Shown here one piece after another: positions 23,552-57,537 of a stretch of DNA of 64,000 nt (its first letter is position 1; every line of letters starts with the position of its first letter). The DNA lies in assembly GCA_937983065.1 (NCBI GenBank), contig CALKAL010000049.1, positions 4,961-68,960 of the forward strand, read 5' to 3'. Source of the DNA: an uncultured Bacillaceae bacterium. GTDB taxonomy: Bacteria; Bacillota; Bacilli; Bacillales; Alkalibacillaceae. The translations under genes and the position numbers were made by a program. The notes below the pieces were generated by a model. The model worked only from the letters and a program-made list of their open reading frames with translations. It had not been told where the DNA came from and ran no database searches.

Positions 23552-23655
23552 CACCTCCTCATATACTCAGACTCGCCATGAAGGTACTTACTATTGTAAG
23601 ATTTTAAAACCTTTTTTGAGCGGTTGTAGCAAAACGGTGCTACAAGAAGCATAAC
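23552..23655 (-). ncRNA. L21 ribosomal protein leader
   Basis: minus strand UGUAGCAC..GCUACAACCGCUCA...AGGUU...ACCU...GGCGAGUCUGAG...GGAGGUGC immediately 5' of rplU. Confidence 0.8.
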
Positions 23656-28511: not shown

Positions 28512-29546
28512 TTAATGAATATAGTTTTTTTTCGTTATGTTCGGTGTTTTTTTAAAATGTTCAATATAGTCTAACGCCTTGCCTGTCCCGACTACTGCCG
28601 TTGTTAAAGGATTCTCGGTCATATGAACAGGTAATGTCGTCTTTTCAAAAATAACTTTATCCAAAAATTTTAGCTTCGCCCCACCGCCAGTTAGAACGAT
28701 TCCTTTCTCTATTATATCAGAGGCAAGTTCTGGTGGCGCATTTTCTAAAATATTTATTATCAAATCTATAATAGCATTAACTGTACTTTCAATCGCTATG
28801 ACAAGTTCTTCATTTTTTAAATAAATGATTTTCGGTAATCCTGTAATTAAATCACGTCCGAATACTTCCATTCTATCATTTTCTTGCGTTTTTTTCGCTG
28901 ATGCAAGTTGAATTTTTAACTTTTCTGCTGTCGTTTCTCCAATCATAACACGATACTCTTGTCGAATGTACTGAATTATTTGTTGATCCATTTTATCCCC
29001 AGCTGCTTTAATTGATTTTGTTAAAACGGTACCACCTAAGGAAACGATAGCTGCTTCCGTCGTCCCACCTCCGATATCGACAATTAAGCTACCTGATGAA
29101 TCCCATACAGGCAAGCCAGCGCCAATTGCTGCTGCCAAAGATTCTGTCATAATATAAACTTGTTTCGCGCCTCCTTGTTTAGCCGCTTCAACAATTGCTT
29201 TCTCTTCAACCGTCGTAATGCCAGAGGGGACACAAACAATTAATGACGGTTTAAAGATATAAAACGATTGTCTATTCACTTCATTAATTAAGTAACGAAT
29301 AATCGCTGATGCTGAATCAAAGTCAGCTATCACCCCATCTTTTAGTGGCTTTATAATTTTTATAGACTCAGGAGCTTTCCCAATCATTTCCTTCGCTTTA
29401 GTCCCTACGGCTTCAACTTGATTTGTATAACGATTCATCGCAACTACTGTTGGTTCTTCGATGACAACCCCTTTACCTTTCATATAAACTAACGTATTCG
29501 CAGTACCTAAATCAATACCGATTCCTCTTCTAGATAAAAAACTCAT
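28512..29546 (-). CDS. mreB: actin-like MreB (divergent)
   Basis: GIDLGTANT, VDIGGGTTE, LTGGGA; lies between radC and mreC. Confidence 0.9.
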   Translation of the reverse strand: MSFLSRRGIGIDLGTANTLVYMKGKGVVIEEPTVVAMNRYTNQVEAVGTKAKEMIGKAPESIKIIKPLKDGVIADFDSASAIIRYLINEVNRQSFYIFKPSLIVCVPSGITTVEEKAIVEAAKQGGAKQVYIMTESLAAAIGAGLPVWDSSGSLIVDIGGGTTEAAIVSLGGTVLTKSIKAAGDKMDQQIIQYIRQEYRVMIGETTAEKLKIQLASAKKTQENDRMEVFGRDLITGLPKIIYLKNEELVIAIESTVNAIIDLIINILENAPPELASDIIEKGIVLTGGGAKLKFLDKVIFEKTTLPVHMTENPLTTAVVGTGKALDYIEHFKKTPNITKKNYIH

Positions 29547-29676
29547 CCTAATCTTCCCCTTTGATGTCGATTTTATAGTATAAGCTATGCTTGACCCATG
29601 TAAAACATGAGTATAGATAGCGCTACTAAATTAAATACATCTAAGGTTTTAGGAAGACTGGATGAGTCCCTTCAAT

Positions 29677-29817
29677 TTATAAATATCCTTTTTCTTTTAA
29701 AGAAACAAACTTGTTATCACCAATTATAATATGGTCTAATAATTCAATGCCCAATACTTTTCCCGCTTCATGTAACCGTCTCGTTACATGAATGTCTTCA
29801 TTTGATGGAGTTGGATC
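29677..29817 (-). CDS. radC: radC exon 2 (46 aa, DPTPSNED...[10 protein letters not shown])
   Basis: hand translation from the intron 3' junction gives the canonical RadC C-terminus; absent from the ORF track. Confidence 0.93.
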
Positions 29818-31671
29818 GTAGGGTAGATTGATGCGCCTTACTGTAAGCAGGTTTCATCACTCCCCCTCAGAACCGTACGTACACCTTTTCAGCGTATACG
29901 GCTCGCCAGTTGATATATAAAAATGCTCCTTAAACGATTATATTCATTTAATATTAGTCTCCATGAACCAATTCCTTTAACTTAACAAATGAATACAATT
30001 GAATATGACCGTTCTGATCTTTGATTGCTATTGATAAAAAACCTTGCCTCGCTCTTCTCAAACTTATTGCGACCCTTTTTACACGACTTCTTCTTTTGTA
30101 TGCTAATGTTTTTATAAAACTACTTTCCGCCAGATGAAATACTTTTTTTAACTCGTTCACATTATCCGCTAATTTATAATATCGATAAAACATTCTCAAT
30201 TCCCGATTATACGTCTTTAAAATCGTTAATTCAGTTTCATTAACTAAATATTTCCGTTCAGTTGATGTAAAATTATCTAAATTTCCGTATCCTTGTGCTT
30301 TAATAAATTTTTGCATCATTTCTCTCGGTATTTCTAACTTAATTTCACTTTCATTCGACGTTTTTGGATTTCTTTTGGAATGACTTCTTTTATTTACTTT
30401 TTTAAAGTGGTAGCCGAGGAAGGGTGTCCTTTTTTCCAAATGATTAATTCCACTATGTTTCTCACATAATTGTAGCTTCAAGTACTCGTTTATAAAGTGA
30501 ATTATTTTTTCGAATATTTTTTTCACATCTTGTTTTGAGCTAGAAAAACCGAGCACGAAATGATTTCCGTAACGGACATAATCGAACGGTTTATTTATTT
30601 TTCCTATCTCGCTTTTAATAAAAGCATCGAATTCGTGTAAAAAAAATATTGGGTTTAGAGTCCTGCTATGGGGAATGCGATTATAATAATAATTTGGCAT
30701 AGCATTTTTTATTTCGTTAATTTTTAAAAGTTGTTGGTCATTTATATTTTTTGAAAGGTTGTTCATTAAAATTGTCTCGTCTAAAGATTCGTTCACATGG
30801 ATGATTTCTCCTTTTAAACACCATGTGAATTTTCCCCAATTATTTTTAATATGGGATAAAGCCTTTAGATGCTTATCTTTTTGAAAGGAGCTTCCTGCTA
30901 TTTTTGGCTCGTAAAACGTATTTTGTTGGTTCTTTTTTCCAACTTGATTTAATTCTACGCGCTCATCAATCTGACTAAAATTAATAGTTTCCCTATAACC
31001 TTCTCTACTATCGTTTAAATTTTTATATACTTTCGTGCAAATATCCTTGTGATCTAAAAGACGATGACAATCCATGACCTTTCACCTTAAATAGAAGCAT
31101 TTTTATTTCGGTTAACTAGTGAATGAAATGAATCTTGAGCCTTGATAAAATTTATTTCGTAGTTAACTATTATCAACCTGTCTCCCTTCCCCTTGCTAAA
31201 CTCATTACGAGCAAACGTTGAGTACTATGGAGACTCCGTTGCCATATGTGAATCAATTTTAACAATATAAACTCACACTTAGGCAATCCCTACCTTTAAC
31301 ATCATTATAGAAGCGTGATGGTTAGGTATCCCTTTCGACGTTTTCCTAAAGCTTAGGATTGAAGGACAAACCTTACGATTGATAACGTTCAGGTGATACG
31401 TCTCAATTTTGTCCTCGTTACCTATTAGCTATCGTAGGTAACGGCGCATCCAACGCTCATCCGTCTAGGATTCAGGCAGTTTAGCTTTTACCATACATCA
31501 CTTGGTCTGAGGAACTGACTCGACTTGATAGCTTCGTCGTCTATTCCCCTTTTCACATCCCGCTTAGTCCTTATATTGAGTTTCCTCTCAAAGTTAGATG
31601 CTGACCATTCGAACAATGTAAGGAGTTCGAGATTATAAACATCACTACAATGATGCCGTTTGTAGGCGCAC
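29818..31671 (-). mobile_element. group IIA intron (Ll.LtrB/ML-like), 1854 nt, inserted in radC
   Basis: 5' GUGCG; DV at 29870-29904 with AGC triad and AC bulge; DVI branch A at -7 (29824); 3' ...CCCUAC; EBS1 ACCUGA (31389-31394) and EBS2 GGAUGA (31457-31462) match exon 1; removal restores the radC frame. Confidence 0.95.
29954..31075 (-). CDS. intron-encoded protein: degenerate RT with maturase domain X, no En domain
   Basis: located in DIV; DYVRYGNHFVLGF at the YADD position, WCLKGEI, FLHEFDAFI, PFLGYHF, domain X YNRELRMFYRYYKLADN. Confidence 0.9.
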   Translation of the reverse strand: MDCHRLLDHKDICTKVYKNLNDSREGYRETINFSQIDERVELNQVGKKNQQNTFYEPKIAGSSFQKDKHLKALSHIKNNWGKFTWCLKGEIIHVNESLDETILMNNLSKNINDQQLLKINEIKNAMPNYYYNRIPHSRTLNPIFFLHEFDAFIKSEIGKINKPFDYVRYGNHFVLGFSSSKQDVKKIFEKIIHFINEYLKLQLCEKHSGINHLEKRTPFLGYHFKKVNKRSHSKRNPKTSNESEIKLEIPREMMQKFIKAQGYGNLDNFTSTERKYLVNETELTILKTYNRELRMFYRYYKLADNVNELKKVFHLAESSFIKTLAYKRRSRVKRVAISLRRARQGFLSIAIKDQNGHIQLYSFVKLKELVHGD

Positions 31672-32214
31672 ACCTGATGGATGATTATGGGCACAGATAA
31701 TTGAAGCGGCTGAACGTTTAATCGCTTCTTTAAATACCTCACGAGGATGAACAATTGAGGAGTTTAGGCTTCCTATGAAGATAGTTTGCCTGTGGATGAC
31801 TTGATTTTTAGTGCTCAAAAAGAGACATACGAAATTTTCCTGTTTCAATCCGCGCATCTCTTCCATTAAATAATTGGCCCCATCTTGAGGGCTTCGAATA
31901 ATATATCGCTCACCAAATTGATAAGTATGGATTCGTTTTCCAATTTCTATGGCGGCTAATAACGTCACTGCTTTAGCTTCCCCAATCCCTTTAATCGAAG
32001 TAATCTCCTCGATTGTCGCATCTTTTAATAATGATAACCCTTCAAAATGCATAAGCAGCCTCGTCGCAAGTGATAATGCTGAACTTCCTTTCGTCCCACT
32101 CCCAATTAAAATCGCAATTAACTCTTGATTCGACAAAGCGTGTGGACCTACTTGGATCAGTCGTTCCCTCGGTCGATCATTTTTAGGGACGTCCTTGATG
32201 AAAATCGTCTCCAT
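31672..32214 (-). CDS. radC: radC exon 1 (181 aa); spliced product about 227 aa JAB/MPN protein
   Basis: RPRERL, IKGIGEAKA HhH, VHPREVF, ends HNHPSG at the intron junction. Confidence 0.93.
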
Positions 32215-32374
32215 ATAATTTAAACATGCTCCTTTCAATTGTGATTTAGACATGTTTAATTATAATGAATTAAAAAATGAAAAACAAAAAGGGAAAAACG
32301 TAATATGTCTCATAAATATAGCTTTCTTGTAACACCACTTGAACGTTTAAACAGAAAAAGACAACATAAACGTT

Positions 32375-39199: not shown

Positions 39200-39445
39200 A
39201 CAAAAATAAAAAAATCTTTTCATCCTTTAACTAAAGGACGAAAAGATTTAATTCGCGGTACCACCTTCATTTGCAAATAATAAAACATATTTGCACACTT
39301 CATGACGATAACGGTTTTCCCGGCTTCTTCTACTTTATTTCAAAGAAGCTGCATATTCAGAGCGACCTTCCAAGTCTTCATACCGAGGAAGCTTTCAGCG
39401 AGATGCTTCCCTCTCTTTCGGAATTCAACTTGTACTCCTCTCTTA
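39200..39445 (-). promoter_or_regulatory. valine T-box riboswitch
   Basis: T-box AAGGTGGTACCGCG (39254-39267), terminator with U-tract (about 39204-39248), AGAGAG and GCTGAAAG stem I boxes, candidate specifier GUC (39364-39366). Confidence 0.9.
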
Positions 39446-39569
39446 CAAGCATTTCATAATCAATTTAATTTATTATATCATATACAAATGAGCAGCTATC
39501 TGTCAATTTAAATGACACAAAATTTTTATCATTATCATATGTTGTAACAAAATAGAAAGGAGGATTAGA

Positions 39570-57376: not shown

Positions 57377-57450
57377 CGTCCCAGGAGCGATTCGAACGCC
57401 CGACCGACAGCTTAGAAGGCTGTTGCTCTATCCAGCTGAGCTACTGGGAC
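57377..57450 (-). tRNA. tRNA-Arg(UCU), CCA not encoded
   Basis: cloverleaf GTCCCAG...CTGGGAC-G, anticodon loop CTTCTAA, TTCGAAT. Confidence 0.95.
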
Positions 57451-57463
57451 ATATAAACTTGTA

Positions 57464-57537
57464 TGGAGCGGGTGAAGGGAATCGAACCCTCGACAACAGC
57501 TTGGAAGGCTGTGGTTTTACCACTAAACTACACCCGC
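57464..57537 (-). tRNA. tRNA-Gly(UCC)
   Basis: GCGGGTG...CACCCGC-TCCA, anticodon loop CTTCCAA, TTCGATT. Confidence 0.97.

Follow-up and report, generated by a model that had tools for sequence, protein, structure and literature searches.

A radC intron of an uncultured Bacillaceae bacterium encodes a reverse-transcriptase-dead protein that is probably retained as a splicing cofactor

The window analyzed here, 64,000 nucleotides (nt) of an uncultured Bacillaceae bacterium (contig CALKAL010000049.1 of assembly GCA_937983065.1, positions 4,961 to 68,960), carries on its minus strand a row of genes that is typical for relatives of Bacillus: valS, folC, a GGDEF gene, radC, mreB, mreC, mreD, minC, and minD. 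In this row, radC is interrupted by a group II intron of 1,854 nt (29818-31671) inserted exactly between the sequences encoding HNHPSG and DPTPS. Domain IV (DIV) of the intron holds a single long open reading frame (ORF) for an intron-encoded protein (IEP) in which the reverse transcriptase (RT) active site has been lost while the maturase part has been kept. The state of the gene, the ribozyme, and the IEP is described here, together with the family of introns to which they belong.

Both radC exons are intact and in register. The reading of exon 1 ends in ...AHNHPSG at 31672 and is followed directly by GTGCGCC, the GUGCGCC 5′ end of the intron, from 31671; the intron ends in ...CUAC at 29818, the radC frame restarts immediately past ...CTACCCTAC, and exon 2 then runs to ...KEKGYL, so that the termini and the in-frame exon junctions are those of a group II intron. 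Exon 1 (32253-31672) joined to exon 2 (29817-29680) gives a RadC of 240 amino acids (aa) that reads in frame through the junction after ...AHNHPSG, with exon 1 covering positions 1-173 and exon 2 positions 173-218 of the 218-position RadC profile. The predicted ligated junction reads ...CATCCATCAGGT joined to GATCCAACTCC..., whereas the unspliced exon 1 frame continues for 8 codons into the intron and then meets a stop. Compared with an intron-less congener, exon 2 shows a nonsynonymous divergence (dN) of 0.071 and a synonymous divergence (dS) of about 2, a ratio (w) of 0.035 that denotes strong purifying selection. Because the radC exons are under such selection, splicing is needed; an exon beyond a nonsplicing intron would not stay preserved in this way. 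Fourteen contigs, drawn from several metagenome studies, all have this arrangement with an identical IEP, and the host of the locus occurs in compost metagenomes. Contigs from four compost RNA libraries in which the locus is present contain no joint across 29818-31671, in assemblies from which minor forms drop out, and they show a break near the 5′ splice site with an unrelated 16-nt loose end at 31680.

By its sequence, the ribozyme is intact: the GUGCG start, the pairing of exon-binding sites (EBS) with intron-binding sites (IBS), the stem of domain V (DV), and the bulged A of domain VI (DVI) are all present. The Rfam model RF00029 (Intron_gpII) matches DV and DVI (29818-29906) at 60.2 bits (gathering score, 40). 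EBS1 and EBS2 pair with the 13 nt at the 3′ end of exon 1, including a lineage-specific G in EBS2. A consensus fold of 17 family members contains 119 pairs, and compensatory changes are seen at 51 of these. The ribozyme retains 79-81% nt identity to its mobile relatives, compared with about 40% aa identity for the IEP. The terminal loop of DV (29886-29890, minus strand) is GAAAA rather than the GAAA of 16 relatives, and the same GAAAA occurs in the independent contig L090. The GNRA tetraloop of DV normally docks into domain I (DI); the GAAAA loop may weaken the DV-DI tertiary contact and increase dependence on protein. A conserved DIVa-like hairpin at the start of the IEP was considered and rejected, as the leader of the window and those of three relatives fold no better than shuffled sequences (z of +0.9 to -2.1).

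Table 1. Features of the interrupted radC gene, its intron, and the encoded protein
Feature	Position	Strand	Details
radC exon 1	31672..32253	-	194 codons, ends ...AHNHPSG; UPF0758_N and RadC JAB domain (profile positions 1-77 of 121); TIGR00608 positions 1-173 of 218
Group II intron, LtrB-like (IIA / mitochondrial-like [ML] type)	29818..31671	-	5′ GUGCGCC ... CUACCCUAC 3′; boundaries same as in 39 homologous introns at this radC site
radC exon 2	29677..29817	-	46 codons plus stop, ends KEKGYL
Ribozyme domains I-III	31215..31671	-	79-81% nt identity to RT-competent relatives
EBS2 GGAUGA	31457..31462	-	6/6 Watson-Crick pairs with IBS2 UCAUCC in exon 1; family consensus GAAUGA
EBS1 ACCUGA	31389..31394	-	6/6 Watson-Crick pairs with IBS1 UCAGGU, the last 6 nt of exon 1
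Dead remnant of ancestral IEP N terminus, now domain IV leader	31076..31149	-	Start codons lost, TAA at 31089-31087, frameshift; holds Shine-Dalgarno-like AAGGTGAAAGG
IEP, 373 aa, RT-dead, without endonuclease, thumb/X retained	29954..31075	-	ATG start, inside intron domain IV
RT3 catalytic Asp position, now Glu90	30806..30808	-	GDIKGFFD to GEIIHVNE
RT5 active site, YADD to YGNH	30560..30571	-	Residues 169-172
Domain X / thumb	29975..30349	-	About residues 243-367; 125/125 alignment columns; 54% identity to RT-competent consensus; pLDDT (predicted local distance difference test) 85-96
Domain V (GAGC...GGUUC)	29870..29904	-	Invariant stem across 17 relatives
Domain VI	29818..29867	-	Bulged A at 29824 (position -7) and 3′ splice site

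A sequence-only reading of this DNA had described the product of the DIV frame as an RT-dead, maturase-only protein, and alignments to 12 database homologues, 39 IEPs from introns at the same site, and LtrA of Lactococcus lactis upheld each of its statements about motifs. The ORF was confirmed, with an ATG start and the Shine-Dalgarno-like AAGGTGAAAGG upstream. The three catalytic Asp positions of the RT are occupied by E, N, and H; in addition to the RT3 and RT5 replacements (Table 1), RT4 has changed from TPQGGIISP to IPHSRTLNP, and most of RT0-2, including the RT1-2 region whose deletion had been proposed, is missing together with the RT4/5 insert (~80 residues). The DNA-binding and HNH endonuclease (D/En) tail is absent: the ORF stops 5 residues past the thumb, where relatives have about 106 more residues with CxxC...HH. 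RT5-7, including the PFLGY motif of RT7, and a full-length X/thumb are kept. In Pfam, Intron_maturas2 (PF01348) is the sole match, at 30.8 bits against a cutoff of 20.8, and no RVT_1 match was found at E<=1; the NCBIfam group II RT/maturase model TIGR04416 gives 47 bits against a cutoff of 300, and no domain newly gained by the IEP was found with the Pfam and NCBIfam profiles. These sequence states support the conclusion that the IEP has no catalytic activity as an RT and lacks endonuclease.

The only solved relative found by sequence is LtrA, with an E value of 7e-26 over RT5-X (query residues 159-354 against LtrA residues 296-496), and the top fold match is likewise LtrA (8h2h_D; E = 3.6e-14; TMq, 0.65). 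The AlphaFold model has a mean pLDDT of 72, with residues 66-100 and 143-373 confident and residues 1-65 and 110-140 disordered; in this model the fingers are lost, and the palm remnant and the thumb retain a folded appearance. RT5-7 and the X/thumb are the parts of LtrA that clamp intron RNA.

The divergence of the protein had also been said to have occurred without stops or frameshifts. This holds for the present ORF but not for the ancestral N terminus, which is dead. Upstream of the present ATG, a different frame still reads that N terminus (NEFSKGKGDRL...FIKAQDSFHSLVNRNKNASI, then a stop), the matching stretch in relatives being ...KGVMNMAKNPFQQLDVIRNAS..., and the frame-0 reading of the remnant aligns with their MNMA.NPF.QLDVIRNAS. 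The first ~25 ancestral codons have died through loss of the start, a TAA, and a frameshift before the present ATG; the present ORF therefore survives in a form truncated at the N terminus, with a new ATG behind AAGGTGAAAGG. The ancestral N terminus contacts intron RNA in LtrA.

The surviving frame bears several marks of constraint. It has no internal stop in 373 codons, and the chance of its remaining open by base composition is about 1e-15; each of the other five frames has 22-39 stops, with 64 codons open at most. In this ORF, which has a GC content of 30%, a stop would arise from 6% of single-base changes, and the internal deletions are all in frame. Close variants of the IEP exist at 96-98% identity. 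Against that of L090 (96% identical), RT5-X (residues 151-335) differs by 1 nonsynonymous and 5 synonymous changes (w = 0.04), whereas the RT remnant (residues 1-150) differs by 13 nonsynonymous and 5 synonymous changes (w = 0.55), a contrast with a Fisher p of 0.05. When two variant contigs are pooled, p is 0.011; the contigs are not independent, and reliance was therefore placed on L090 alone. The first 170 nt of contig L091 are 7% divergent and may be chimeric. Two RT-dead IEPs from Cerasibacillus, compared with each other at a dS of about 1.1, give w values of 0.18 for domain X, 0.17 for RT5-7, and 0.48 for the part before RT5; the contrast seen against L090 on small counts appears here again at greater depth. 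The same Cerasibacillus pair shows 13 synonymous and no nonsynonymous changes in radC exon 2, and RT-dead introns at this site have therefore coexisted with a selected downstream exon. Only RT5-7 and X are full length across all nine RT-dead IEPs identified in this work, and RT5-7 and the X/thumb are also the best-conserved parts. These comparisons of sequences support purifying selection on RT5-7 and the X/thumb. The purifying selection that the earlier reading had proposed is supported for RT5-X by the per-domain dN/dS comparison that it had suggested, and the role in splicing is a presumed one.

The differences between the window and L090 are unevenly distributed. In the part of the ORF that encodes the RT remnant (30626-31075), 18 of 450 nt are substituted and there is also a 3-nt indel; the ribozyme has 2 substitutions in 455 nt, and the flanking exons and intergenic sequence (29547-29817 and 31672-31795) have none in 395 nt. 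The synonymous divergence of the ORF from L090 (about 0.05) is above that of its surroundings, which hints at recombination between strains or a mosaic assembly.

A scan of species-representative genomes returned 55 related loci, 39 of which have an intron at exactly this radC site; all 39 introns start with GTGCGCC and end with C(C/A/T)(T/A)AC. About 20 of the 39 are 2.53 kb long and encode a 629-aa IEP with every RT motif and an HNH domain. Several others encode IEPs with early damage (YADI, YAGD, YAED, or a truncated En domain), and eight, or nine with that of the window, are deeply RT-dead, with ORFs of 275-496 aa. Besides the host of the window, the RT-dead forms occur in two species of Cerasibacillus, Priestia taiwanensis, Virgibacillus sp. 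LDC-1, Oceanobacillus sp. 1P07AA, Terrihalobacillus, Halobacillus karajensis, and one genome of the family of the window. The junction pattern (HNHPSG codons followed by GTGCGCCT) was present in 19 genomes among the 401 sampled from the order; these 19 belong to 17 of 133 genera, and the reversed control of the pattern matched none of the 401. The RT-competent copies form a shallow clade that disregards host taxonomy, including a Clostridia-labeled metagenome-assembled genome (MAG), and therefore behave as an active retroelement. The RT-dead copies lie on long branches, all of them outside the mobile clade in the ribozyme tree, with weak support (81/30). In the IEP tree, the RT-dead form of Halobacillus is nested within competent forms (98/97), and at least two RT-dead origins are forced there for that reason. 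Intact, early-lesion, and deeply RT-dead stages thus coexist among the 40 introns examined. The radC HNHPSG-site family might represent a natural bacterial series from retroelement to splicing-only domestication that extends far beyond the single published case, a proposal made tentatively and on which we would not insist; full-text literature searches turned up no later paper describing an intron family at the radC site. In this proposal, at least one RT-dead lineage, that of the window plus Cerasibacillus, is shared by nonsister hosts, which would mean either that dead introns still move, by recombination or trans-mobilization, or that RT loss in the family has been repeated and convergent.

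Further introns were seen in radC of other Bacillaceae. A second group II intron, besides that at the HNHPSG site, lies near RadC residue 175 of exon 1 in L005, L006, L007, L008, L021, and L036 and after residue 29 of exon 2 in L015, L016, and L023, with Rfam domain V matches just ahead of each of these junctions; the number of sites at which group II introns have inserted in radC is therefore at least three. A MAG labeled as Thermotaleaceae (Clostridia; locus L019) carries a full-length intron of the Bacillaceae type, with a 629-aa IEP, at the same radC site, and its exon 1 is 45% identical to that of the window, which reflects either cross-class transfer of a mobile intron or a misbinned contig.

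At the population level, the identical IEP on 14 contigs agrees with the vertical inheritance that the sequence-only reading had proposed. Among genomes of the family in the Genome Taxonomy Database (GTDB), however, an intron at this site was found in only 2 of 31, that of the window and one other; it is missing from the genome of the same genus (G014) and from 28 of the 30 other family genomes, 27 of these 28 having one unbroken radC. In a host tree of RadC and MreB, the window groups with G014 (support, 100), and the pair is nested among 18 family members with uninterrupted radC. The nearest relatives of the intron are those of Cerasibacillus, both by the IEP (97/92) and separately by the ribozyme DNA (97/91), and the Cerasibacillus hosts fall in the Virgibacillus/Oceanobacillus clade rather than as a sister to the host of the window. 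Of the host and intron trees, whose comparison had been suggested as a check, the intron trees join the window to Cerasibacillus and the host tree joins it to G014. The earlier interpretation was right in substance, in that the RT is dead and the maturase kept, and overstated with respect to vertical inheritance and frameshifts; as a whole it is partly supported.

Co-conversion of the exons from a Cerasibacillus-like donor was considered and rejected, as the flanking exons are nearest to those of the congener G014 (85% and 77% nt identity versus 68-75% for Cerasibacillus). Because the flanks are of host ancestry, a recent recombinational import that included them is not supported. Synonymous sites are saturated between the window and G014, so that there has been enough time for the intron to invade first and decay afterward. 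Shared deletion boundaries were also rejected as proof that the window and Cerasibacillus introns had a common dead ancestor: their boundaries are not the same and lie where the alignment is arbitrary, for which reason their sister grouping is drawn from the trees only. The grouping may reflect a common dead ancestor, and thus horizontal movement of a dead intron, a common live sublineage, or long-branch attraction. In the host genome, a MAG of 2.33 Mb that is 80% complete, searches revealed neither a further group II RT nor a further group II intron or domain V, and for this reason the intron is probably immobile, as had been proposed. Two other genomes of the same GTDB family (G003:C1:867582-868186 and G022:C10:46619-47261) match the radC profile in two adjacent, slightly overlapping pieces; radC is split there near residue 121-128, in one case with a TAA, which looks more like a frameshift or pseudogene than an intron.

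The explanation that we favor, and consider probable, is that the IEP of a once-mobile intron is now dead as an RT and is under selection as a cis-acting splicing cofactor, a maturase. An LtrB-like group II intron homing to the sequence that encodes HNHPSG and DP in RadC would have invaded radC in this lineage and at a later time ceased to be retromobile. The IEP would have decayed at the three catalytic Asp positions and would have lost the RT4/5 insert, the original N terminus, the DNA-binding/HNH tail, and, for the most part, the fingers (RT0-2), while selection would still hold the palm remnant (RT5-7) and the X/thumb. Translated from unspliced radC pre-mRNA, the IEP would bind its own intron and aid folding, and the intact ribozyme would excise itself, joining both halves of the JAB/JAMM motif of RadC. 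RNA binding, maturase activity, splicing in vivo, and immobility are steps that we infer from the observed sequence states, selection, ribozyme integrity, and exon conservation. Several points weigh against this explanation. The evidence for splicing and for the function of the protein is indirect. The within-population dN/dS values are based on few substitutions (27 in total), and the deeper comparisons are near dS saturation. The N terminus that contacted RNA is gone, and a GAAAA pentaloop replaces the GNRA tetraloop of DV; function could suffer from either change. With a MAG that is only 80% complete, a trans-acting RT or maturase could be encoded elsewhere in the genome.

Selection on the protein bears on two other accounts. 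The ORF could be a dying, functionless relic, open by chance, in an intron that self-splices or uses host factors. An N terminus already dead and a w of about 0.5-1.5 in the RT remnant would fit such a relic, as would the still shorter ORFs of Cerasibacillus (275-325 aa, with the RT7 FLGY lost), which suggest continued erosion; it is nonetheless unlikely given 373 codons without a stop at 30% GC with 6% of single-base changes stop-making, internal deletions that are all in frame, and a w of 0.04 for RT5-X here and 0.17-0.18 in the Cerasibacillus pair at a dS of about 1.1. Purifying selection, for its part, shows that the protein is used but not for which purpose, and the IEP could have been kept for a role other than the splicing of its own intron, such as control of radC/mreB expression or, like MatK, action on other RNAs. 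The conserved parts are exactly those with which LtrA binds its intron, the IEP is encoded within the only intron present, and no new domain has been gained, all of which make a new role distinctly improbable, even with the conservation in all RT-dead forms of the RT2a-RT3 segment (ALSHIKNNWGKFTWCLKGEI); that no other group II intron was found for the IEP to serve counts in favor of a new role.

Two further accounts concern the intron rather than its protein. Were radC a pseudogene, the intron would no longer splice, and the exons and ORF would be young wreckage. The recovery of no spliced junction from the RNA contigs, which as assemblies are uninformative, and the altered DV loop are compatible with this, but both exons are intact and in register with a w of 0.035 in exon 2 relative to the congener, the EBS/IBS pairing is perfect, and 14 contigs from several studies are all identical in this arrangement; we regard a pseudogene as very improbable. 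It is harder still to credit that the intron is mobile at present, through trans-mobilization by a related full-length RT or through residual polymerase activity of the IEP, since the three catalytic Asp residues are replaced, the fingers are deleted, no other RT was found in the genome, and the intron is present as a single copy. Points in favor of such mobility are that the nearest relatives of the intron reside in a nonsister host and that full-length relatives are in wide circulation among Bacillaceae.

According to the review of Zimmerly and Semper (2015), bacterial IEPs have rarely degenerated, and the review names as the sole known bacterial example O.i.I2, an ML-class intron in radC of Oceanobacillus iheyensis whose IEP lacks YADD and other RT motifs, has kept its ORF open, and has been interpreted as maturase-only (PMC4424553, section 9). 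An RT-dead IEP in a bacterial radC is not a first: O.i.I2 is a precedent in the same gene (PMC4424553, section 9). As far as the description in the review allows comparison, the two are alike as bacterial ML-class radC introns with lost RT motifs and an open ORF. They differ in host, that of the window being an uncultured relative of "Bacillaceae bacterium W0354" in the Alkalibacillus/Halalkalibacillus group, as placed by MreB, and in their lesions, as the IEP of the window has YGNH, a 373-aa ORF, and a dead N terminus. An Oceanobacillus stand-in for O.i.I2 (L046) is about 25% identical to the window IEP and occupies a separate long branch. The primary source for O.i.I2 is reportedly Simon et al. 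(2008, RNA 14:1704), to whom the review attributes it.

Other relatives are the full-length radC-site introns of Bacillaceae (for example, L006, L015, and L027), which share with the window the insertion site to the nucleotide and the termini GTGCGCC...CCCTAC and are 79-81% (ribozyme, nt) and 42-49% (C-terminal half of the IEP, aa) identical to it; they differ in encoding a 629-aa IEP with all RT motifs, X, D, and the HNH endonuclease. An intron with a radC-family host gene is also known from the Bacillus cereus group (PMC2504315). RT5-7 and the thumb of LtrA, from Ll.LtrB (PDB 5g2x and 8h2h), align residue by residue with the window IEP; LtrA differs in its length of 599 aa, active RT, DNA-binding and En domains, and support of retrohoming. 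In plastid MatK, encoded in the trnK intron, and plant mitochondrial MatR, RT0-4 are unalignable or lost and RT5-7 and X are kept, in introns that reside in needed genes (PMC4424553, section 9). The decay of the window IEP, with RT5-7 and X kept and RT0-4 eroded, follows the same pattern, as had been noted from the sequence; this is an analogy, the degenerate state not being shared by descent. MatK differs in being organellar and in serving several introns in trans with nuclear cofactors, whereas the window has one intron and one protein with no sign of other clients.

Group II introns of bacteria are usually selfish, mobile, and located outside core genes, and splicing-only introns with a domesticated maturase are an organellar state that is thought to lead toward spliceosomal introns. 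A bacterial lineage that has made this transition in a conserved gene would be a tractable model for the conversion of an RT into a pure splicing factor, and the mobile and dead relatives at an identical site permit direct comparison. The window alone is one more example, with a new start after N-terminal decay, a DV pentaloop, and an intron-less congener, and establishes no new principle; the larger and apparently undescribed radC-site family is the more interesting by-product.

Two minor observations concern the rest of the window. MreB (28512-29546) is unusually diverged, with 73% identity to that of the same-genus genome and 58% or less to those of all other relatives, and the lineage of the window has the longer terminal branch in the host tree. 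The minus strand also carries ordinary RNA elements, namely, a T-box leader, a ribosomal protein L21 leader, and two tRNAs (39231-39457, 23559-23635, and 57377-57537).

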